Positions 1-11,488 of a stretch of 33,851 bases of DNA are shown one piece after another. The stretch is from a bacterium (lineage in GTDB: Bacteria > Patescibacteriota > Dojkabacteria > SC72). The stretch lies in assembly GCA_017958745.1 (NCBI GenBank), contig JAGDCC010000031.1, positions 1 through 33,851 of the forward strand, read 5' to 3'. The position numbers were made by a program, and so were the translations under genes. The notes under the pieces were generated by a model, which did not search any database, had not been told where the DNA came from, and worked only from the letters and a program-made list of their open reading frames with translations. Each line of letters begins with the position of its first letter. The stretch's first letter is position 1.

Positions 1-1
1 A

Positions 2-3000
2 ATAACACTAAGTGCAGCAAGTGGTAGAGTCTTAGTGGATAATACAAATAATTTTATAGCCACAGTTAGCTCTGGTGGCTCAGCAACAGTAACAGGAACA
101 TTGTCTGTAGTAAGTAGTGACACAACTAAGGTAACAGTATCTCCAGCAAGTTCTAATATAACCGCAAATACATCTGGGGTCGCAACAACGGAAACAATAA
201 CAGGTATTGCAGAAGGTGATAGTACAATAACAGTAAGTTTTACTCCAGCAGATACAAGCAACTTTAATAGTGCTGTTAATAAGATTTATCCTGTTGTAGT
301 AACAGTTCCAACCTTGGCAGAGAAGATAATAATGGATGATTATGGTGATGATAATTACAATGCTGCGGTAACAGCAATAAATAATAAGTCTGCAAGAGAT
401 TTTAAAACAACAGCCACAACAGATGAGGGATTACATGCAATAGCAGATTATTCCAGTATAAGTAGTACAACATTAGACGGAACAAGTTATTATTTTAGAG
501 GTGCGGCAGATGATAACTGGGTAAGCTTTGCAGGATATCTTTGGAGAGTCGTAAGAATAAATGGAGATGGAAGTGTAAGAATGATTTATAGTGGAACAAC
601 TAGTAACCATACGGGAACAGACACTTGGATTGGTACATCTTCTTATAATGTTGATGGGCTTGATTCAAAATTCGTAGGATATACATACGATACAGATACT
701 GCAAGCACAGTAAAAAGAGAGATAGATGCTTGGTATGAGAACAATCTGAAAGAAGAATATGAAAGTTACCTTGCCGATGAAATCTTCTGTAATGATAAAA
801 GTATTAGTTTAGAAAGGTCTGGAGAGTACGATACAATTTATATGGCAAATGAAAGATTGAGTAATAGTTATGCTCCTACTTTGCAATGCGTAAATCAATC
901 GGATAGATATACATTAAAGGCACAATTTGGAGAAAGTAGTATATCTGGAGTAAGCGGAGCTGGTAATAATATGCTCCGTTATCCAATAGGATTGTTAACA
1001 GCAGATGAAGTATCTCTAGCAGGTGGCTTGTATGGTATGTATAATAATGATTACTATCTCTATACATCCGATGATTCTTTTTGGCTAGGATCTCCATGGC
1101 AATATAGTCCTAATGAGACATATATATATAGTTTTATGTTTTCTGTTGGATATTATTTTGAATATAGTTCTGTCTCGTACCATGGTGATTATAATGATTT
1201 GACAACAAGAGGTATTCGTCCAGTAATAAACCTAAAGCCAAGTGTGGAGTATTATAGTGGTAGTGGTACGGAAAATGATCCATATATAATAAAAGAAATT
1301 CCAACACCAACAATAACATTAAGTGCAACAGAGAATGCAATTCTTCTTGGTGGTACAACATCATTTGTTGCAACAGTAAATAGTGGAACAGTCAGTAGTA
1401 TTCCAGGTACATTAACAGTAAGAAGCTTAGATACAAGTGTAGCAACAGTAAGTCCTGCAAGTAGTAGTGTAACTGCAACAACAAGTGGTGTATCTACATC
1501 CATTACTGTGAATGGAGTTGGAGGAGGAATCAGTCGTATATTATTAGAATTTACACCAACAGATACAGCAACATATGGTGTATCCTCTAAGATATATACG
1601 ATATCTGTAAATCCATGTTTATCAGGAGATACATTAGCAAATTGTTTGATATACGCAGATTATGGAACCAGAAATTATAGTACTGCAACAACGACAATAA
1701 ACAATAAAACAGCAATAGTTTTTAGAGATCCCGCAACAACAGATGAGGGTCTGCATGCAATAGCAGATTACTCAAGTGTAAGTAGTACGACATTAGATGG
1801 AACAAGCTACTATTATAGAGGAGCAGTAGAAGATAACTGGGTAAGTTTTGCAGGATATTTATGGAGAGTAGTAAGAATCAATGGCGATGGTAGTGTAAGA
1901 CTGATTTACAGTGGAACAACAAGTAACCATACAGGAGTTGATACACAAATAGGTACATCTCCTTATAATGTTGATGGGCTTGATTCAAAATTTGTCGGAT
2001 ATATGTATGATACAACTGTAAATAGTACAATAAAGGGAGTTATAGATACTTGGTATGAGAATAACCTTAAGGCAGAATATGAAGGATACCTATCTAATGA
2101 AATATTTTGCAATGATAGAAGTATTGCTGGCTATGATTATACGAATAACTTTTCTTATAATACAGAACACAGATTAATCCAGTACGATTACTATAATCAT
2201 ATATACCCGACTCTACAATGTGAGAATCAATCAGATAGATATACGTTAAAGGTTCAATCAGAATATAGTGGGATTGCTGGAGTAAGTGGAGCAGGTAATA
2301 ATTTACTTGACTATCCAATAGGTTTGTTGACAGCGGATGAAGCAACTTTGTCTGGGGTTAGTATTGTAGGTCATAATTATCACGGTTATCTTTCTACTGG
2401 GCAATTATATTGGACTAGTAGTCCATCATATGGGTCATCATATTCACATGTTTTGTTTGTTTCAACATTTGGTCTAGGAAATAAAGAACCTTTAAGTAAC
2501 AACTATGGAGTTCGTCCTGTTATCAATCTAAAATCAGGCGTAAAGTATGCAAGTGGTAACGGTACAGAAACTAATCCGTATGTAATAGAGTTAGAGCCAA
2601 CGATTTCTTTGAGTGAATATAAAGGTTCTGTCGCGCCAAGTGATACACTAACATTTACTGCGACAGTATACTCAGGAGATACATCTAGTATTCCAGGAAC
2701 GTTTACAGTAAGCAGTAGTGATACAAGTAAAGCAACAGTAAGCCCAGCAACTAGTAGTATAACAGCCATCCCAAGTGGAACATCAGTAACAGTAACAGTT
2801 ACAGGAGTCGCATCTGGAAGTAGCACAATAACAGTGGGCTTTACACCAACAGATACAACAACCTACAGTACACCAGAATCTAGGGTATATACGGTAACTA
2901 CGAGAAATGATTATACAGTTACATTTAATGGGAATGGGGGAACATTTGCAAACAATGCAAATACAAATACTTTAGTATATCCATTAGGTTATTTAACATT

Positions 3001-6000
3001 ATCAAATGATACAGTAACCAAATATTCTCACACATCTAATGTAGATGATACTGGATTAAAAACATCTAATTATGGAAATAACTGGACAAATGCAAATATA
3101 ACGGGAACAGATAGAGGAGATACAACTAAGGCTCATGTAGTAACTATACCAGGAGCAAGATCATTAACTGTGGAAATATATTACAATGGACAAGGAACAT
3201 CTTATGATTGGGTAACAGTCTGGGCAGGAAGTCATCCAGATTATACTGCAGGATCTAACTATACTTCTGGAATATCTGGTGGTACTAGGTTAGGAGGTAG
3301 TCAGAGTGGAAGTTATACAGTAAATGGCAATTCTCTTACAAACATGGGGCATAGTACATTTACAATACATGGAGACACAGTAACGTTTGGATTCAAATCT
3401 AATGCAAGTAATGTTGGACAAGGTTATGGATATTATGCAATTATAACCAACAATGGACCGATAGAATCTGTTACATATACAGGAACATATGAGGAGCCAA
3501 CTAAATCTGGGTATGATTTTGTTGGGTGGTTGTCTTCTGCTGATGGAAATGTATACAACAATTTGAGTGGAGAATCTTTAAGACCAGATGATGATATTAC
3601 GTATACAGCACAATGGGGACATTATGTGGCAATACCTACGAATTCTTATTGCCGTTCTGGATTGTCATATACGGGTAGCAGTCAGATTTTAACTAATGCA
3701 CCAGGGACTGGTTATAGTTTTAGCGGTAATAGTGCAATCGATTCTGGTTATCATATAGTGACAGCTATATTAGATACAGATTATGTATGGGAAGATAATA
3801 CTCGTGACAATAAAGGGATAAGGTGTAATATCTACAAGATATATCCAGTGTTAACTTTGGGTGCTACAAGTGGAAGTGTTGTAGAGGGAAATACATCAAC
3901 ATTTACAGCGATAGTAACAAGTGATGTCGCTTCTGCTGGGACATTGTCTGTTGTTAGTGATTCTACTGATGTTGTGACAGTTTCTCCAACAAGTAGTAGC
4001 ATAACCGCTACTACAGCTGGTACTTCTGTTACAGAGACAATAACTGGTGTGTCTAGAAAGGGTCAGGGTACGATAACTGTAGATTTTATTCCAACAGATA
4101 TTGTTAACTTTTCTCGACCGCAAAAGATGTATTATTCAGCCTTTGTGGAAGGTGTAAACCAATGTTTATCTGGAGATACATTGGCAGATTGTTTAGTTTA
4201 TAATGATTATGGTGGGAGAAATTATAGTAATGCTATAGCAAACATAAATAATAAAGCACCTTCTGATTTTACATCTATTTCTACAACATACGAAGGACTT
4301 AAGGCAATAGAGGATTATTCTAGTGTGAGTGGTACAACATTAGATGGAACAAGCTATTACTACAGGGGAGATATAAGGGATAACTGGGTAAGCTTTGGAG
4401 GTTTCTTATGGAGAGTAGTTAGAATAAACGGAGATGGAAGTGTAAGGCTAATCTATAGTGGAACAAGTAGTAATCATACTGGAACTGGTACGCGAATAGG
4501 AACATCTGCATTCGGTAGTGATTCTAACGATCCAAAGTATGTTGGGTACACGTATGATGACAATGAAGATAGTGTTATAAAGGGAGTGGTTGATACTTGG
4601 TATGAGAGTAATCTTATGGAGAATTATGAAAGTTATTTATCTAATGAAATATTTTGTAATGATAGAAGTGTAGATGATAACAGTTTCGGTGCGTTTAAAA
4701 GAATATTTTACAATAGCGCGCCAAGTCTTGTATGTGTAAACCAAGCTGATAAATATACGTTGAAGTTATCTGGGAATAGCTATGTTTCTGGTATTAACGG
4801 AGCTGGTAACAACTTGCTTAATTATCCAATAGGCCTTCTAACAGCAGATGAGGCTGCGATAGCTGGTAGTGGTAATTACTACGGTTATATCAATGACACT
4901 TATTATTTATATACAGGACAAACATATTGGCTAGGCTCGCCTTCCTATATTTCTTCTTCTTATTTGGGTTCAACGGTGACATCTAGTGGTTACTTAGATG
5001 CTGTTAGTGTTAGTAATACGAGTTATAATATAGGTGTTCGTCCAGTAATAAACCTTAAATCTAGTGTAGAATATTATGGTGGTAGCGGTTCTGAGAATAA
5101 TCCTTATGTTATTAAAGAACTTCCTACTCCAGTATTGACTTTAAGTTCTGCTCAAGGAACAGTTATTCAGGGTAATACAACTACATTCACAGCAACGGTT
5201 GCATCAGGTAGTTCTTCTAATATTCCTGGAACATTGGTAGTGAAAAATACGGATGCAAGTATAGCTACTGTAAGTCCAGCAAGTACAAATGTAACTGCAA
5301 CAGTATCTGGAGTCGCTACAACAATTACTCTTAGTGGTGTTAATATGGGAAGTAGTAAAATAATTGTAGAATTTATACCAACAGATACAACTACATATGC
5401 TGTTTCATCGAAGATTTATAACTTGACTGTTGCTCCATGTACAGCTGGAGATACATTAGCTAATTGCTTGATTTATTCAGACTCTGGGACAAGAAATTAT
5501 AGTGATGCTACAGCAGCCATAAGCAATAAAACTGCAAGGGATTTCAACACGACAGCAACAACAGATGAAGGGTTACATGCCATAGCAGATTACTCAAGTG
5601 TAAGTAGCACAACCTTAGATGGAACAAGCTACTATTATAGAGGAGCAGTAGAAGATAACTGGGTAAGTTTTGCAGGATATCTATGGAGAGTAGTAAGAAT
5701 CAATGGAGATGGTAGTGTTAGAATGATATATAGTGGGACGACTAGTAATCATGCTGGAACAGGTACACAGATAGGAACGTCATCATTTGATGATAGTATT
5801 TATGATCAGAAACATATCAATTATGTACATGATACAGATACGGTTATAAAAGAAAATATTGATACTTGGTATGAGAATAATCTTAAAGATAATTATGAAA
5901 GCTATTTGTCTAATGAAATCTTTTGTAATGATACTAGTATAGGTTCTATTGTTACTGCTGATAGTTATTATTACTTTGGTGCATACTCTAGACTTTATGA

Positions 6001-9000
6001 AAATAAAGCTCCAAGTCTAGTATGTACAAACCAATCAGATAGGTATACGTTAAAGAATATCGGTATCAGTAGTATACAGGGGGTAAGTGGAGATGGTAAT
6101 AATAGACTCAATTATCCAATTGGCTTATTGACAGCAGATGAAGTATCTTTAGCAGGTGGTAAATACAATACATCAAACAATAATTATTATCTTTATTCTG
6201 GGCAGTATTATTGGTTAAGTTCTCCACATAATGTTAGGTATGATTCACAATCTAATACTGCTAATATGTTTTATACATCTACTTATGGGAGTATTTCTTA
6301 TTATGAGTTGCGGGCATCTGGTATCGGTATTAGACCAGTTGTGAATTTAAAGCCATCTATTAAGTATGTTAGTGGTACTGGTACCGTAAGTGATCCATAC
6401 GAGATAGAGAGTATTAATACTTCTACAATGATGTTGAGTGCAACGGAAGGTTCTGTTATGACTGGCAATACAACATCTTTTGTTGCAACTGTAACTTCTG
6501 GTAGTACATCTAATATTTCAGGAACATTACTTGTTAGAAGTGAAGATACTAGTAAAGCAACTGTAAGTCCAGCTAGTAGTAATATAACAGCAACTCCATC
6601 TGGTGTGTCTACAACAATAACTGCTACAGCAGCAGAAGCAGGAGTAAGTAAAATAACTGTATTCTTTATACCTACAGATACTACATACGGAGTTTCATCT
6701 AAGACTTATACTTTAACAGTAGTCCCTTGTACTTCTGGAGATACTTTAGCTAATTGTTTAGTATATGCTGATACAGGAACAAGAAATTACAGTAATGCTG
6801 TAACAGCAATAAATAATAAATCTGCAAGAGATTTCTCTACAACAGCAACAACAGATGAAGGATTACATGCAGCAGCAGATTATTCTAGTATAAGTAGTAC
6901 AACCTTAGATGGAACAAGTTACTATTATAGAGGAAGTGTTCAGGATAACTGGGTAAGTTTTGCAGGCTATTACTGGAGAGTAGTGAGAATAAATGGAGAT
7001 GGTAGTATAAGACTAATCTACAGTGGAACAAGTAGTGATCATGGTGGAAGCTATACAAGCATATCTGATGCATCATTTAGTTCCGCATCTGAAATTTATT
7101 ATATGTCTGGTAGTGCAGATAGTTCAATAAAGAAAGGTCTTGATAGGTGGTATAAGAACAATATTAATACTATTTATGAAAATTATCTATCTAATCAAAT
7201 GTTCTGTTTTGACAAAGAAATAGATAGCATTTCTGGTTATTATACATATTATGGCGCGTATTCAAGATTAGTAACGAACAAAACTCCTAGTCTTGGATGT
7301 CCTAATAAGGAGGATATGTATACGTTAAGGGAGATAGGTCCGAGCATTGTTTTAGGTTCAAATGGAGCTGGTAATAATAAATTAGATTATCCAATAGGTT
7401 TGTTGACTGCGGATGAAGCAGCTTTAGCAGGTGGTGTTTATGATGTTGTTAATAATAGTTTTTACCTCTATGCTGAGAATAGGGATTATTGGCTCGGTTC
7501 ACCTTTTTATAAAAATTCAAATGTTACAACTGGTTTTGAGTTTTATATGAAAGATAGCTCATCTGGAACTGGTGATGCAGGAAAATTATTTGCAACTCAA
7601 AGCTCTGTTTCCCATATTGGTTTTCGTCCAGTAATTAATTTAAAAGCTAGTGTCAAGTATAATGGTGGTATAGGAACAGAAAGTGACCCATATGTAGTAA
7701 AACAAGAGCCTGCATTATTGTTGAGCTCCTCTATTGGTGGTGTGTATCCAAATGATACAACAACTTTTACTGCGAAAGTCTATTCAGGCGGAGAATCTGA
7801 TATCTCTGGTTTATTAACAGTAAGTAGTAGTGATACAAGTAAAGCAACTGTAACACCAGCGAGTAGCAATGTGACAGCAATACCAGGAGGAACGGAGGTT
7901 ACAATAACAATAACAGGAGTGGCATTAGGAAGTAGTACAATAACTGTAACCTTTACACCTACTGATACAAACTATGATGCAGTTTCTAAGATATACACAG
8001 TAACAACGAGAAATAATTATACGATAGACTTTGATGCGAATGGAGGAACATTTACTAATAGTAATACTACAAACACAATAGTGTATCCGACAGATTACTT
8101 AACGATATCACAAAGTAATGTAACTAAGTATTCTCATACGTCTAATGTAGATGATACAGGGTTACGAACATCTAATTTTGGAAATAACTGGACAAATGCA
8201 AATATAACGGGAACAGACAGAGGGGATACTAGCAAAGCTCATGTAGTAACAATATCAGGAGCGAGTTTCTTGACAGTAGATATTTATTACAGTGGTGATG
8301 ATGGTGACTGGGCAACAATATGGGCTGGGAGTCATCCAGATTACACAGCCGCGAATAATTATACTTCTAGTATAATTGGTGGAGCTCAGCTTGGAGGATA
8401 TCAAGGTGGGTCTTATACAGTGAATGGTAATTCCTTAACAAGTATGGGATATAGTCAATTCATAATAAGTGGTGATACTGTAACATTTGGGTTTAAATCT
8501 GATTCAAGCGGAGGATGGTATGGGTATTATGCTGTTATAACAGGAACATTTGAATCCATTACATATACTGGTACATATGAAGAACCAACAAAAGCAGGAT
8601 ATGAATTTCTTGGTTGGTTATCTTCTGAAGATGGAAACATATATCATGACATAAGTGGAGAATCCTTAAGACCAGATGAAGATGTTACATACACGGCACA
8701 ATGGGGACATTATATAGCAATTCCAACTGCAACTAATTACTGTAAATCAGGTTTAGCATATACAGGTAGTAGTCAAATCCTAACTAATACACCCGCAACT
8801 GGTTACACATTTAGTGGTAATACAGGAATTAATGCAGGTAGTTATGAAGTAACTGCTAGTTTAGATACGGATTATGTATGGATAGATGATAGCAGAGGAA
8901 CTAAGACATTTAGTTGTAGTATAGGTAAGGTAACTCCGACAATATCATTAAGTTCAACATCTGGTGGAGTCGAAGTTGGTAGCACAAGTACATTTACAGC

Positions 9001-11488
9001 AACCGTAACAAGTAGTGTAAATTCTGCAGGTACATTAACTGTTACCAGTAGAGCAAGCAGTGTAGCAACAGTAAGTCCAGCAAGTTCTTCTTTAACGGCA
9101 ACAACAACAGGAGTTTCTACAACAGAAACGATAACTGGTATTGCTAAGGGGTATAGTACAATAACAGTGAGTTTTACACCAACAGATACTACTAATTTTA
9201 ATAGTCCATCTAACAAGACATATTCCTTATCTGTAAATGGGGTCAACCAATGTATATCAGGAGATACATTAGCAAATTGTCTAGTCTATAATGATTATGG
9301 TGGTAGAAATTATAGTGATGCAGTAACAGCAATAGGAAACAAGTCTGCATCCAATTTCTCTTCTGTTTCTGAAACATATGAGGGACTTAAATCAATTTCC
9401 GATTATTCTAGTATAAGTGCAACAACATTAGATGGAACAAGTTATTATTACAGAGGGAGAATAGGTGATAACTGGGTTAGTTTTGCAGGATTCTTGTGGA
9501 GAGTTGTAAGAATTAATGGAGATGGAAGTGTAAGAATGATATATAGTGGGACGACTAGTAATCATGCTGGAACAGGTACACGAATAAGTACATCTGCATT
9601 TAACAGTAGTCGTAATAACTCTAAATATGTAGGGTATATGTATGACACAACTACAAATAGTACAATGAAGGGAGTAATAGATACATGGTATGAGAATAAT
9701 CTTAAAGCAAGTTACGAGGGTTATTTGTCAAACGAAATTTTCTGCAATGATACTAGTGTTGGAAGTACGAGTGGTAGTACAATCTATTACAGTACTTATG
9801 CAAGGCTATATACAAATAAAACACCTACATTAGAATGTGTAAATCAATCAGACAGATATACTTTGAAAGAATCTGGGCTTAGTAGTATTTCAGGAGTAAA
9901 TGGAGCAGGTAATAATATGTTAGATTATCCAGTTGGTTTATTAACAGCAGATGAGGTGGCTATAGCAGGAGGTGTCAATGGAACAAATAATACAAGTTAC
10001 TATTTATATACAGGGCAAAATTATAGACTAGGTTCTCCATATAGGTATTATAGCAGTAGTGCTTATGCTTACTACGTTAATACAAGTGGTAACCTGACAA
10101 ATGCTTATGTTACAACGAGTTATGGAGTGCGTCCAGTGATAAATCTAAAATCTGGTGTTAAGTATGCAAGTGGTGATGGTACAGAAGGTAATCCATATGT
10201 AATACAGGAAATACCAACACCAGCAATAACATTAAGTGCTAATAGTGGAAGTGTAGATTCAGGGGATACAACAACGTTTACAGCGACAGTAACATCCAGT
10301 AATTCTTACAATATAGCTGGTACATTAACAGTAAGTAGTGGAGATACAAGTAAAGCAACAGTAAGTCCTGCAAGTACTAACGTAACAGCAACGCAAGCAG
10401 GAGTAGCCACAACAATAACAGTAACAGGTGTGGCCGAAGGTAGTAGTTCAATAACAGTAAGCTTTACACCAACAGATACAGTATATTACAACAGTGCATC
10501 GGATGTATTATATACAGCAACAGTATCTAGTCCTCCACTTGCCAAGAAATTAATCATGGATGATTATGGAAGTAACAACTATGCAGCAGCAGTAGCAGCA
10601 ATAAATAACAAATCAGCTGTTGATTTCTCGACGACAGCAACAACAGATGAGGGCTTACATGCAATAGCAGATTACTCAAGTGTAAGTGCAACAACCTTAG
10701 ATGGAACGAGTTATTACTATAGAGGAGCAGTAGAAGATAACTGGGTAGATTTTGCAGGATATCTTTGGAGAATAGTAAGAATAAATGGAGATGGAAGTAT
10801 AAGATTAATATATAGTGGCACAACAAGTATTCATACAGGATCAGGTACTCAGATAGGTACATCTGTTTTTAACAGTAATGGAAGTGATTCTAAATATGTA
10901 GGATACACATATGATGATAATGGTACAGAAACAGATAGTATAATAAAGACTGCTATAGATAATTGGTATATAGCTAATATTAAGCCAAATTACGAAGGAT
11001 ATCTCTCTAACGAAATCTTTTGTAATGATAGAACATATACTGTTAATGGAAACATCCGTTATTTTGGTGCATATACAAGGCTAACAGCCAATAAAACACC
11101 AACACTACTATGTACAAACACACAAGATAAATATACGTTAAAGGTATCAGGACAAAGTAGTATATCAGGAACGAATGGAGCAGGTAATAACCTATTAGAG
11201 TATCCAGTAGGATTATTAACAGCAGACGAGGTATCTTTAGCAGGAGGTGTAAACGATATCGAGAATAGTAGCAGTTATCTTTATACAAGTAGTAGCTATT
11301 GGCTTGGTTCTCCTCGTATCTTCAATGGTGCTGCTGCTGATTTGTTCACTAATTGGGATGGAAAAATTGCTGGTGGTGGAAATCTAAGTTATAACAAAGG
11401 TGTTCGTCCAGTTTTAAATCTTAAACCTAGTGTTAAGTGGAACGGTGGTGATGGTTCAGAGAATACTCCATATACTGTAAAACTATAA
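2..11488 (+). CDS. Giant repetitive surface protein/adhesin, 5'-truncated (7x DUF6273/CLec-like domain, 9x Ig-like, 2x InlB B-repeat with CUB-like insert, 2x MBG-like domain)
   Basis: Frame is open from base 2 (ITLSAASGRVLVD...), so GTG at 35 is probably not the true start. Stop TAA at 11486-11488. Thr/Ser/Gly/Tyr-rich, with the recurring motif YYYRG..DNWVSFAGYLWRVVRINGDGSVR.IYSG...YPIGLLTADE...WLGSP...G.RPV.NLK. No C-terminal TM helix or sorting signal. Confidence 0.9.
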   Translation: MTLSAASGRVLVDNTNNFIATVSSGGSATVTGTLSVVSSDTTKVTVSPASSNITANTSGVATTETITGIAEGDSTITVSFTPADTSNFNSAVNKIYPVVVTVPTLAEKIIMDDYGDDNYNAAVTAINNKSARDFKTTATTDEGLHAIADYSSISSTTLDGTSYYFRGAADDNWVSFAGYLWRVVRINGDGSVRMIYSGTTSNHTGTDTWIGTSSYNVDGLDSKFVGYTYDTDTASTVKREIDAWYENNLKEEYESYLADEIFCNDKSISLERSGEYDTIYMANERLSNSYAPTLQCVNQSDRYTLKAQFGESSISGVSGAGNNMLRYPIGLLTADEVSLAGGLYGMYNNDYYLYTSDDSFWLGSPWQYSPNETYIYSFMFSVGYYFEYSSVSYHGDYNDLTTRGIRPVINLKPSVEYYSGSGTENDPYIIKEIPTPTITLSATENAILLGGTTSFVATVNSGTVSSIPGTLTVRSLDTSVATVSPASSSVTATTSGVSTSITVNGVGGGISRILLEFTPTDTATYGVSSKIYTISVNPCLSGDTLANCLIYADYGTRNYSTATTTINNKTAIVFRDPATTDEGLHAIADYSSVSSTTLDGTSYYYRGAVEDNWVSFAGYLWRVVRINGDGSVRLIYSGTTSNHTGVDTQIGTSPYNVDGLDSKFVGYMYDTTVNSTIKGVIDTWYENNLKAEYEGYLSNEIFCNDRSIAGYDYTNNFSYNTEHRLIQYDYYNHIYPTLQCENQSDRYTLKVQSEYSGIAGVSGAGNNLLDYPIGLLTADEATLSGVSIVGHNYHGYLSTGQLYWTSSPSYGSSYSHVLFVSTFGLGNKEPLSNNYGVRPVINLKSGVKYASGNGTETNPYVIELEPTISLSEYKGSVAPSDTLTFTATVYSGDTSSIPGTFTVSSSDTSKATVSPATSSITAIPSGTSVTVTVTGVASGSSTITVGFTPTDTTTYSTPESRVYTVTTRNDYTVTFNGNGGTFANNANTNTLVYPLGYLTLSNDTVTKYSHTSNVDDTGLKTSNYGNNWTNANITGTDRGDTTKAHVVTIPGARSLTVEIYYNGQGTSYDWVTVWAGSHPDYTAGSNYTSGISGGTRLGGSQSGSYTVNGNSLTNMGHSTFTIHGDTVTFGFKSNASNVGQGYGYYAIITNNGPIESVTYTGTYEEPTKSGYDFVGWLSSADGNVYNNLSGESLRPDDDITYTAQWGHYVAIPTNSYCRSGLSYTGSSQILTNAPGTGYSFSGNSAIDSGYHIVTAILDTDYVWEDNTRDNKGIRCNIYKIYPVLTLGATSGSVVEGNTSTFTAIVTSDVASAGTLSVVSDSTDVVTVSPTSSSITATTAGTSVTETITGVSRKGQGTITVDFIPTDIVNFSRPQKMYYSAFVEGVNQCLSGDTLADCLVYNDYGGRNYSNAIANINNKAPSDFTSISTTYEGLKAIEDYSSVSGTTLDGTSYYYRGDIRDNWVSFGGFLWRVVRINGDGSVRLIYSGTSSNHTGTGTRIGTSAFGSDSNDPKYVGYTYDDNEDSVIKGVVDTWYESNLMENYESYLSNEIFCNDRSVDDNSFGAFKRIFYNSAPSLVCVNQADKYTLKLSGNSYVSGINGAGNNLLNYPIGLLTADEAAIAGSGNYYGYINDTYYLYTGQTYWLGSPSYISSSYLGSTVTSSGYLDAVSVSNTSYNIGVRPVINLKSSVEYYGGSGSENNPYVIKELPTPVLTLSSAQGTVIQGNTTTFTATVASGSSSNIPGTLVVKNTDASIATVSPASTNVTATVSGVATTITLSGVNMGSSKIIVEFIPTDTTTYAVSSKIYNLTVAPCTAGDTLANCLIYSDSGTRNYSDATAAISNKTARDFNTTATTDEGLHAIADYSSVSSTTLDGTSYYYRGAVEDNWVSFAGYLWRVVRINGDGSVRMIYSGTTSNHAGTGTQIGTSSFDDSIYDQKHINYVHDTDTVIKENIDTWYENNLKDNYESYLSNEIFCNDTSIGSIVTADSYYYFGAYSRLYENKAPSLVCTNQSDRYTLKNIGISSIQGVSGDGNNRLNYPIGLLTADEVSLAGGKYNTSNNNYYLYSGQYYWLSSPHNVRYDSQSNTANMFYTSTYGSISYYELRASGIGIRPVVNLKPSIKYVSGTGTVSDPYEIESINTSTMMLSATEGSVMTGNTTSFVATVTSGSTSNISGTLLVRSEDTSKATVSPASSNITATPSGVSTTITATAAEAGVSKITVFFIPTDTTYGVSSKTYTLTVVPCTSGDTLANCLVYADTGTRNYSNAVTAINNKSARDFSTTATTDEGLHAAADYSSISSTTLDGTSYYYRGSVQDNWVSFAGYYWRVVRINGDGSIRLIYSGTSSDHGGSYTSISDASFSSASEIYYMSGSADSSIKKGLDRWYKNNINTIYENYLSNQMFCFDKEIDSISGYYTYYGAYSRLVTNKTPSLGCPNKEDMYTLREIGPSIVLGSNGAGNNKLDYPIGLLTADEAALAGGVYDVVNNSFYLYAENRDYWLGSPFYKNSNVTTGFEFYMKDSSSGTGDAGKLFATQSSVSHIGFRPVINLKASVKYNGGIGTESDPYVVKQEPALLLSSSIGGVYPNDTTTFTAKVYSGGESDISGLLTVSSSDTSKATVTPASSNVTAIPGGTEVTITITGVALGSSTITVTFTPTDTNYDAVSKIYTVTTRNNYTIDFDANGGTFTNSNTTNTIVYPTDYLTISQSNVTKYSHTSNVDDTGLRTSNFGNNWTNANITGTDRGDTSKAHVVTISGASFLTVDIYYSGDDGDWATIWAGSHPDYTAANNYTSSIIGGAQLGGYQGGSYTVNGNSLTSMGYSQFIISGDTVTFGFKSDSSGGWYGYYAVITGTFESITYTGTYEEPTKAGYEFLGWLSSEDGNIYHDISGESLRPDEDVTYTAQWGHYIAIPTATNYCKSGLAYTGSSQILTNTPATGYTFSGNTGINAGSYEVTASLDTDYVWIDDSRGTKTFSCSIGKVTPTISLSSTSGGVEVGSTSTFTATVTSSVNSAGTLTVTSRASSVATVSPASSSLTATTTGVSTTETITGIAKGYSTITVSFTPTDTTNFNSPSNKTYSLSVNGVNQCISGDTLANCLVYNDYGGRNYSDAVTAIGNKSASNFSSVSETYEGLKSISDYSSISATTLDGTSYYYRGRIGDNWVSFAGFLWRVVRINGDGSVRMIYSGTTSNHAGTGTRISTSAFNSSRNNSKYVGYMYDTTTNSTMKGVIDTWYENNLKASYEGYLSNEIFCNDTSVGSTSGSTIYYSTYARLYTNKTPTLECVNQSDRYTLKESGLSSISGVNGAGNNMLDYPVGLLTADEVAIAGGVNGTNNTSYYLYTGQNYRLGSPYRYYSSSAYAYYVNTSGNLTNAYVTTSYGVRPVINLKSGVKYASGDGTEGNPYVIQEIPTPAITLSANSGSVDSGDTTTFTATVTSSNSYNIAGTLTVSSGDTSKATVSPASTNVTATQAGVATTITVTGVAEGSSSITVSFTPTDTVYYNSASDVLYTATVSSPPLAKKLIMDDYGSNNYAAAVAAINNKSAVDFSTTATTDEGLHAIADYSSVSATTLDGTSYYYRGAVEDNWVDFAGYLWRIVRINGDGSIRLIYSGTTSIHTGSGTQIGTSVFNSNGSDSKYVGYTYDDNGTETDSIIKTAIDNWYIANIKPNYEGYLSNEIFCNDRTYTVNGNIRYFGAYTRLTANKTPTLLCTNTQDKYTLKVSGQSSISGTNGAGNNLLEYPVGLLTADEVSLAGGVNDIENSSSYLYTSSSYWLGSPRIFNGAAADLFTNWDGKIAGGGNLSYNKGVRPVLNLKPSVKWNGGDGSENTPYTVKL
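2912..3840 (+). repeat. InlB B-repeat (Listeria-Bacteroides repeat) with CUB-like insert, plus Cys-pair MBG-like domain, copy 1
   Basis: YTVTFNGNGGTF...[insert]...EPTKSGYDFVGW...ITYTAQW, then YCRSGLSYTGSSQILT...DYVWED...CNI. Near-duplicate at 8018-8930. Confidence 0.7.
8018..8930 (+). repeat. InlB B-repeat with CUB-like insert, plus MBG-like domain, copy 2
   Basis: YTIDFDANGGTF...[insert]...EPTKAGYEFLGW...VTYTAQW, then YCKSGLAYTGSSQILT...NAGSYEVTASLDTDYVW. Confidence 0.7.

Follow-up and report, generated by a model that had tools for sequence, protein, structure and literature searches.

A predicted germline-encoded library of C-type-lectin-fold heads in giant surface proteins of a Dojkabacteria genome

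The window analysed here is the whole 33,851-nucleotide contig JAGDCC010000031.1 (contig C25) of a 722-kb Dojkabacteria assembly (G000; 56 contigs, 33% GC, 88.6% complete), and its subject is the giant surface protein encoded by the open reading frame (ORF) at its left end (2..11488, + strand; 3828 aa as seen, with matches to DUF6273, Big_2 and Flg_new). This protein carries seven related domains, here called heads, each with a hypervariable segment at the site where diversity-generating retroelements (DGRs) rewrite related proteins. The heads probably belong to a germline-encoded library of paralogous lectin-like domains that no retroelement is currently rewriting.

The gene is predicted to encode a giant secreted or surface-displayed adhesin with its seven heads strung on Ig-like spacers. 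Each head would display its own C-terminal beta-hairpin patch, corresponding to the 27–38-aa segment between W.GSP and G.RPV, and the same patch in DGR-linked relatives is taken to be the mutagenised ligand-binding surface. Diversity would reside in 24 diverged paralogous heads encoded in the germline by six giant genes. The family would have entered the lineage by acquisition, with gut Bacilli as the probable donor; its heads would then have been duplicated there and would have diverged through ordinary point substitutions together with insertions and deletions (indels) concentrated on the binding face.

Fold of the heads and position of the variable segments

The heads are enlarged C-type-lectin-fold (CLec) domains of the DUF6273 or IgA-peptidase N-terminal-domain (NTD) type. 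The whole protein passes the Pfam gathering score for DUF6273 (PF19789; 86.1 bits, cut-off 23.5), with the best stretches covering only profile positions ~126–172 in the C-terminal part of the profile. An AlphaFold2 model of head 6, built on an alignment of the 24 heads (pLDDT 93.2, pTM 0.92), has as its best match in the PDB the NTD of the IgA peptidase IgAse (9qa6_A; VIA-align Z 13.9, root-mean-square deviation 3.4, 202 residues, 19% identity), and the next row has a Z of 6.8. Lower rows include the C-terminal domain of Lcl from Legionella (Z 6.2), TvpA (2y3c; Z 5.0), Mtd (1yu0; Z 4.0) and C-type lectins (Z 4–5), and most others of the top 50 are C-type lectin-like domains (CTLDs) or bacterial CLec domains, each with a Z below 8. 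Foldseek against the PDB gives one significant match (again 9qa6; E 3e-4) with a poor global TM-score of 0.38, such that VIA-align is needed to see the fold; a profile search of the PDB sequences with the 24-head alignment yields only chance-level matches (E ≥ 0.13). Matches of the head in BFVD are phage DUF6273 proteins.

In the accessible text of PMC12237041 the IgAse NTD is described as dispensable for catalysis and as having a CTLD core with decorations that double its usual size, and that of PMC12402451 labels the domain DUF6273. Because the list of structural matches is consistent and the published 9qa6 NTD is described as a CTLD core, a CTLD core is assigned to the heads as well. The Pfam score and the comparison with 9qa6 bear out the lectin-type fold suggested by a first-pass annotation that was made from the sequence alone.

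Each variable segment lies between a (Y/F)(W/R)(L/T)xSP motif (starting at nt 1079, 2408, 4925, 6209, 7487, 10022 and 11297) and a G.RPV motif (starting at nt 1211, 2507, 5033, 6326, 7619, 10124 and 11399), in agreement with the seven heads and hypervariable segments, from (Y/F)WLxSP to G.RPV, that had been described before. On the + strand these are segment 1 (1097..1210; 38 aa, from FWLGSP to GIRPV), segment 2 (2426..2506; 27 aa), segment 3 (4943..5032; 30 aa), segment 4 (6227..6325; 33 aa, followed by a G.RP arginine encoded by AGA), segment 5 (7505..7618; 38 aa), segment 6 (10040..10123; 28 aa) and segment 7 (11315..11398; 28 aa). Segment lengths range from 27 to 38 aa in the window (n = 7) and from 25 to 39 aa over the 24 heads of the genome.

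In the 24-head alignment the W.GSP-to-G.RPV stretch has the highest smoothed column entropy (~2.75 bits, compared with 0.3–1.5 over most of the scaffold). There are three further variable loops per head (positions ~119–127, 171–194 and 245–253), and the earlier statement that the heads are conserved until the segment does not hold. Calling the segments essentially unalignable was an overstatement, as the 24 segments and a real DGR template can be aligned on a kept scaffold of A, F/Y, V, (S)G, I/L and V. The segments show an enrichment of Tyr, Ser, Asn and Gly.

That template belongs to locus L079, on contig CAKOIF010000013.1 of an uncultured gut Bacilli metagenome-assembled genome (MAG). Positions 2344-6480 there contain an entire chromosomal DGR cassette directed at a full-size head. 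The target gene (2344-4035; 564 aa) ends in a full DUF6273/IgAse-NTD-like head, and a 120-nt repeat is present both as the variable repeat (VR; 3850-3969) and as the template repeat (TR; 4849-4968). Two small ORFs lie within the cassette, and the reverse transcriptase (RT; 5158-6480) is ~31% identical to the RTs of congeners of the Dojkabacteria genome. The template consists of Asn codons interspersed with A-free scaffold codons, and 24 of the 25 mismatches between TR and VR are at TR adenines, with 23 of the 25 at codon positions 1–2. The limits of the repeat are exactly W-S-G-S-P and G-A-R-P-V, the arginine being encoded by CGT within a GC-rich 3′ end.

The window segments align to the TR/VR span of L079, and because this span coincides with the W.GSP-to-G.RPV stretch of a full-length head, the variable segments are positional homologues of true DGR VRs, beyond mere resemblance. 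The VR-like character attributed to them earlier is thus confirmed as to position. They resemble a DGR target in their site on the C-terminal face of the CLec fold, in the A-free scaffold codon that most heads have, and in the GC-rich 3′ boundary. In the portions of PMC10743442 and PMC11792537 available, gut-phage DUF6273 domains are described as C-lectin-like DGR targets, and the second of these places the VR at the C-terminus of DUF6273.

Retroelement parts, codon patterns and stability of the segments

DGRs are known in bacteria of the candidate phyla radiation (CPR; from the accessible part of PMC8144416), and an RT is present in 3 of 22 congeneric genomes searched. Cassettes of an RT, an Avd-like gene and a repeat are found in genomes G019 (locus L014, C6:26000-45000) and G013 (L015, C26), and another in a congeneric or same-order genome (L016, G028:C3). 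These cassettes contain an RT of ~405 aa, an Avd-like protein of ~122 aa and a TR/VR pair, and their targets are DUF1566-like proteins of ~283 aa, with up to three paralogous targets at L014; the G019 and G013 targets end FWSST...Y.VRCV. In the G019 repeat, counted with its flanks, 26 of the 39 substitutions derive from A, and there are also two 3-nt gaps.

The first-pass annotation had raised the possibility that the window segments are actively diversified in trans. Such a DGR would have to sit either in the ~11% of the genome missing from the assembly or on a phage or plasmid, with the conserved GGT GTT CGT CC boundary as its homing site. The conserved 3′ boundary of all heads does resemble the GC-rich end of the L079 VR, the genome is incomplete, and DGRs exist within the genus. 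However, RT, Avd and TR were not found in the 88.6%-complete genome: there are no RVT_1 candidates, tblastn with the congeneric RT and Avd-like protein gives best E-values of 0.87 and 3.1 respectively, and the congeneric RT, Avd and target (tblastn, E ≥ 0.44) and TR (blastn, short chance matches) have no homologue in it. A TR differing from one of the segments only at adenines, proposed earlier as a search of the rest of the genome, was also not seen there; outside the giant genes, the only matches to any of the 24 segments are chance ones of 13–22 nt.

Two candidate templates were considered and rejected. The first, at C33:10336-11071, matches a head C-terminus and is a frameshifted, internally deleted head that is not Asn-rich. 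The second is a 120-nt inverted match (72%) to a head segment at locus L034, which proves to be the C-terminus of a convergent second head gene, with mismatches that are not A-specific.

The pattern of differences among the segments is also unlike that of a DGR. One template would homogenise both segment length and non-A positions, and because lengths and non-A positions differ, the segments do not come from one template. They differ at every codon position, with pairwise differences of 0.64, 0.62 and 0.58 at positions 1, 2 and 3. The closest paralogues diverge gradually, the values for codon positions 1/2/3 in the closest pair being 0.14/0.10/0.30 in the scaffold and 0.21/0.18/0.39 in the segment, a modest proportional excess. 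Variation in this genome's segments is not limited to positions 1–2 of AAY-derived codons, nor is it free of indels.

Columns aligned to template AAT codons contain 72% NNY codons and 11% K/E/Q/M/W, compared with 100% and 0% in the true VR of L079. AAY mutagenesis cannot yield K/E/Q/M/W, and these residues account for 19 of 222 positions (8.6%) in the window segments and 9.9% in those of the 24 heads, but 5.2% in external heads and none in the true VR. The external heads, from other genomes, are thus nearer to the DGR profile (Y3 0.755, in addition to the 5.2% K/E/Q/M/W).

The segments are also stable across samples. The runs that contain the window sequence are labelled bovine gut or gut metagenome, and among the contigs listed for four of them (X1–X4, from two studies of 2021 and 2025) six of the seven segments are spanned with 0 differences. 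Segments 1 and 3 are the same in contigs of X1 and X2, segment 4 in X1–X4, segments 5 and 6 in X1, X2 and X4, and segment 7 in X1, X2 and X3; segment 2 has no listed variant, but the long contigs listed do not span it. No listed variant position falls inside any segment, and most of the listed variants are in conserved scaffold close to the ends of contigs, a region in which paralogues cross-map. Population-level hypervariation of the segments is therefore not seen among the contigs and variants listed, which as contigs leave room for rare variants. With no RT, Avd or TR found, segments unlike the products of one template, and identical segments in the listed contigs, active DGR diversification in this genome is very unlikely and largely refuted.

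Contigs of X1–X4 (window 59-11405) also join paralogous positions of different heads (for example 598 to 2021, 2858 to 8030, and 9975 to 11405). The last of these joints has 77 letters on its shorter side and is present in X1 and X3, and most joints have 20–44 letters on one side. They could reflect cross-mapping of other giant genes or strain-level rearrangement; a reading of them as recombination was set aside, the shorter sides being too short to call. These joints are nonetheless what might be expected if gene conversion or recombination exchanged segments among the 24 copies, a source of antigenic or adhesive variation that needs no retroelement, and the long conserved nucleotide blocks on either side of each segment would favour such exchange. 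However, other giant genes or related strains can give short joints of this kind at 90% likeness, and no segment is common to any two heads, making cassette shuffling a most improbable source of the diversity.

A different possibility is that the segments are fossil DGR products, generated by a DGR in an ancestor or donor, captured by duplication, and then frozen and eroded after loss of the retroelement. The codons of the boundary arginine are part of the evidence for it. In the window the G.RP arginine is CGT in six heads and AGA in one (n = 7) and the WRVVR arginines are AGA in 14 of 14, just as was noted from the sequence at the start. Over the 24 heads CGT encodes the G.RP arginine in 20, while their other arginines are mostly AGA (195/259); in the genome as a whole CGT constitutes 6.8% of arginine codons. 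In 79 external heads the G.RP codons are CGT (29), CGC (28), CGG (7), CGA (7), AGA (5) and AGG (3), of which 64 of 79 are A-free (CGT/CGC/CGG), in comparison with AGA in 358 of 599 other arginines and A-free codons in only 15 of 177 WRxxR arginines; all of these counts come from related copies and are hence non-independent. The avoidance of A at this arginine is nevertheless position-specific and family-wide, as a template scaffold codon needs. It is the sole codon-level trace specific to the segment boundary, and if the segments are fossil products the CGT arginine would be what survives of the homing boundary.

The preference for NNY codons is less specific. Third-position pyrimidines are indeed more frequent within the window segments than outside (0.68 vs 0.535), as first claimed, although the excess comes partly from amino-acid composition (Tyr, Ser, Asn) and its synonymous part is common to other variable columns. 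Relative to the genome background, synonymous NNY codons are at 0.61 observed against 0.52 expected in the VR (z 4.3) and at 0.57 against 0.51 in the other variable columns (z 4.1). NNY bias was consequently rejected as a DGR sign: it reaches z 5.0–5.7 against the heads' own non-segment codons, and the segment-specificity is lost with the genome background and the other-variable-column control. Over the 24 heads, synonymous codon choice follows column variability: measured against the genome background, codons ending in a pyrimidine are overrepresented at variable columns (z about +4) and underrepresented at conserved ones (z −6.6).

A fossil origin agrees with the head family being a true DGR target, as seen from the single L079 cassette containing VR, TR and RT, and with the scaffold pattern that the heads share with the L079 template, although a common scaffold pattern is also expected from structure alone. 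The boundary arginine fits it too, yet CGT could descend from one ancestral head. Enrichment of Tyr, Ser, Asn and Gly in the segments is in keeping with such an origin, but they contain more K/E/Q/M/W than either external heads or the true VR, other variable columns show a synonymous NNY excess just as large, and five of seven orthologous segment pairs differ by indels. DGRs do occur in congeners, but these aim at unrelated small DUF1566-like proteins, and the head family was not found in the 40 relatives searched. A fossil DGR library is accordingly a possible but unlikely explanation, albeit a better one than either active diversification or shuffling.

Several points weigh against the preferred reading of a germline-encoded library that no retroelement now rewrites. 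Contigs drop minority variants, the pieces listed leave segment 2 unspanned, a further 457 contig pieces and 16 variant rows fall outside the listing, and one run is possibly that of the source sample. At 88.6% completeness and in 56 contigs, the assembly may lack an RT or TR, which could also be carried by a phage. The CGT codon at G.RP in 20 of 24 heads, against 6.8% genome-wide, has the look of a DGR scaffold codon. Lastly, we infer the adhesin function and the differing specificities, and no ligand is known for this head type; the proposal that one polypeptide displays at least seven binding specificities is plausible.

The head set of the genome and its relatives

A hidden Markov model made from the seven window heads identifies 24 heads in six giant ORFs of the genome (C25, 7; C33, 6; C46, 4; C15, 3; C28, 2; C34, 2), which together occupy about 47 kb, or ~6.5% of the 722-kb assembly. 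The sequence at C33:10336-11071, just after the stop of the C33 giant ORF, comprises an out-of-frame Ig domain and a head that has lost ~190 aa internally and contains another frameshift. It represents a 25th head in decay or else a mistake of the assembly.

The N-termini of the giant proteins differ when inspected by eye. In the C28 product (C28:36777-40940) two dockerin-like D.N.D..I..SDF repeats come after a hydrophobic leader, the C46 (1-8610, − strand) and C15 products start with transmembrane or signal segments, and the C34 product (C34:10419-16352) has a pilin-like hydrophobic segment. Three giant ORFs run off contig ends, those of C25 (window 1-35) and C33 (C33:1) at the 5′ end and that of C46 (C46:1) at the 3′ end. 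Because the C46 product breaks off within a head tail (…NGGDGT) and the C25 product starts at an Ig domain, the two ORFs could be parts of one still longer gene.

A profile search of 40 relatives (22 congeneric; several incomplete) has no match to the head family at E ≤ 1e-10. By contrast, the head profile matches 9471 cluster representatives in a large library at E ≤ 0.001, and of 573 confirmed head loci the 80 retained stem chiefly from gut 'Mycoplasma sp. CAG:776', uncultured Tenericutes, Bacilli and Erysipelotrichaceae. That the family was not found in the 40 relatives, while MAGs of gut Bacilli, Tenericutes-type bacteria and Erysipelotrichaceae have it in abundance, suggests that it was acquired horizontally and then expanded.

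In a midpoint-rooted tree of 124 heads, a single clade (support 0.69) unites the 24 heads of this genome with 14 from four collinear proteins of ~60% identity, and the 86 others fall outside it. This topology fits a single acquisition followed by expansion, with the direction and the donor both inferred. The four proteins (P0122, P0002, P0123 and P0125, from another source) are collinear with and ~58–62% identical to four of the six giant proteins, and if they are orthologues then the gene set is older than that split. P0122 is a collinear protein with 62.5% identity, in which the scaffolds are 58–73% identical and the segments 11–44% identical, with gaps in 5 of 7 segment pairs. By this comparison the segments change quickly without being randomised.

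The giant ORF of the window is open at the contig 5′ end, and the true protein may be longer. It is organised as units of an Ig-like domain and a head (with a Big_2 match in the spacers), giving seven heads of ~330 aa each and two ~510-aa inserts, all on the + strand. Head 1 (287..1309; aa 96-436) is a DUF6273-type enlarged C-type-lectin-fold domain and is followed by head 2 (1607..2605; aa 536-868), head 3 (4154..5131; aa 1385-1710), head 4 (5429..6424; aa 1810-2141), head 5 (6719..7717; aa 2240-2572), head 6 (9242..10222; aa 3081-3407), which was the one modelled with AlphaFold2, and head 7 (10511..11485; aa 3504-3828) at the C-terminal end of the protein. No C-terminal anchor was seen after head 7. 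Insert 1 (2606..4153; aa 869-1384) contains Ig-like parts, a beta-rich region and a Listeria-Bacteroides (Flg_new) repeat, and insert 2 (7718..9241; aa 2573-3080) is its paralogue, with 73–79% nucleotide identity across blocks of 185–300 nt. The remaining genes of the window are housekeeping genes, including those for VanY, Dus, a ClpB-like protein, SufBD, a SufS-like protein, MutL and LeuRS.

Comparison with known systems

The heads are candidate determinants of attachment to host or substrate in the rumen, and together with the DGRs of the genus they show that ultra-small, host-dependent bacteria can differ in how their ligand-binding diversity arises. An RT is carried by 3 of the 22 congeners searched, with G019 and G013 having a DGR cassette acting on a small lectin-fold protein, whereas this species has 24 hard-wired heads and a genome in which no retroelement was found. 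If the segments are fossil products after all, the 24 heads would be frozen retroelement output, analogous to a shift from somatic to germline-encoded receptor diversity, while in sister species of the genus a small lectin-fold target is still served by a live DGR. DUF6273 DGR targets had been described in phages, and the L079 cassette extends their range to the chromosome of a gut Bacilli MAG and to a full-size IgAse-NTD-like head, although DUF6273-type targets in cellular genomes may already stand in the target-domain tables of PMC8144416. An A-free codon for the arginine at the VR boundary, being a family-wide feature, could serve as a simple sequence marker in screens for present or past DGR linkage.

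Among known DGR targets, the gut-phage DUF6273 proteins (tentaclins, PMC10743442; a Faecalibacterium prophage, PMC11792537; both as described in the parts available) and L079 have the same domain as the heads, with the VR in the same C-terminal hairpin (W.GSP to G.RP) as the window segments and an A-free boundary arginine. They differ in having an RT, an accessory gene and a template with adenine-only mismatches, none of which was found in this genome, where the segments have indels and non-A changes. Mtd (1yu0), TvpA (2y3c) and the DUF1566-type targets of L014 and L015 are similar to the heads in having a C-type-lectin-type core with a C-terminal variable surface ending W..S....G/Y.R; however, their structural scores are weak (Z 4.0 for Mtd and 5.0 for TvpA), and they are much smaller, belong to other Pfam families and are DGR-linked.

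Descriptions of tandem DUF6273 arrays in CPR bacteria were not found among the papers listed by the literature searches, as judged from titles and the beginnings of abstracts. Other, metagenome-derived giants with multiple DUF6273 heads include P0126 (4905 aa, 11 matched stretches) and P0128 (2534 aa, 10 stretches), which are tandem arrays like the window protein but with heads only 27–32% identical to those of this genome. The closest structural relative is the NTD of the Thomasclavelia ramosa IgA peptidase (IgAse/ThomasA, 9qa6), with the same enlarged C-type-lectin-like fold and the same Pfam family as the heads. According to the accessible text of PMC12237041, that NTD is a single accessory domain on a metallopeptidase and has a structural zinc site, whereas the window protein has seven tandem copies on Ig spacers and no peptidase.

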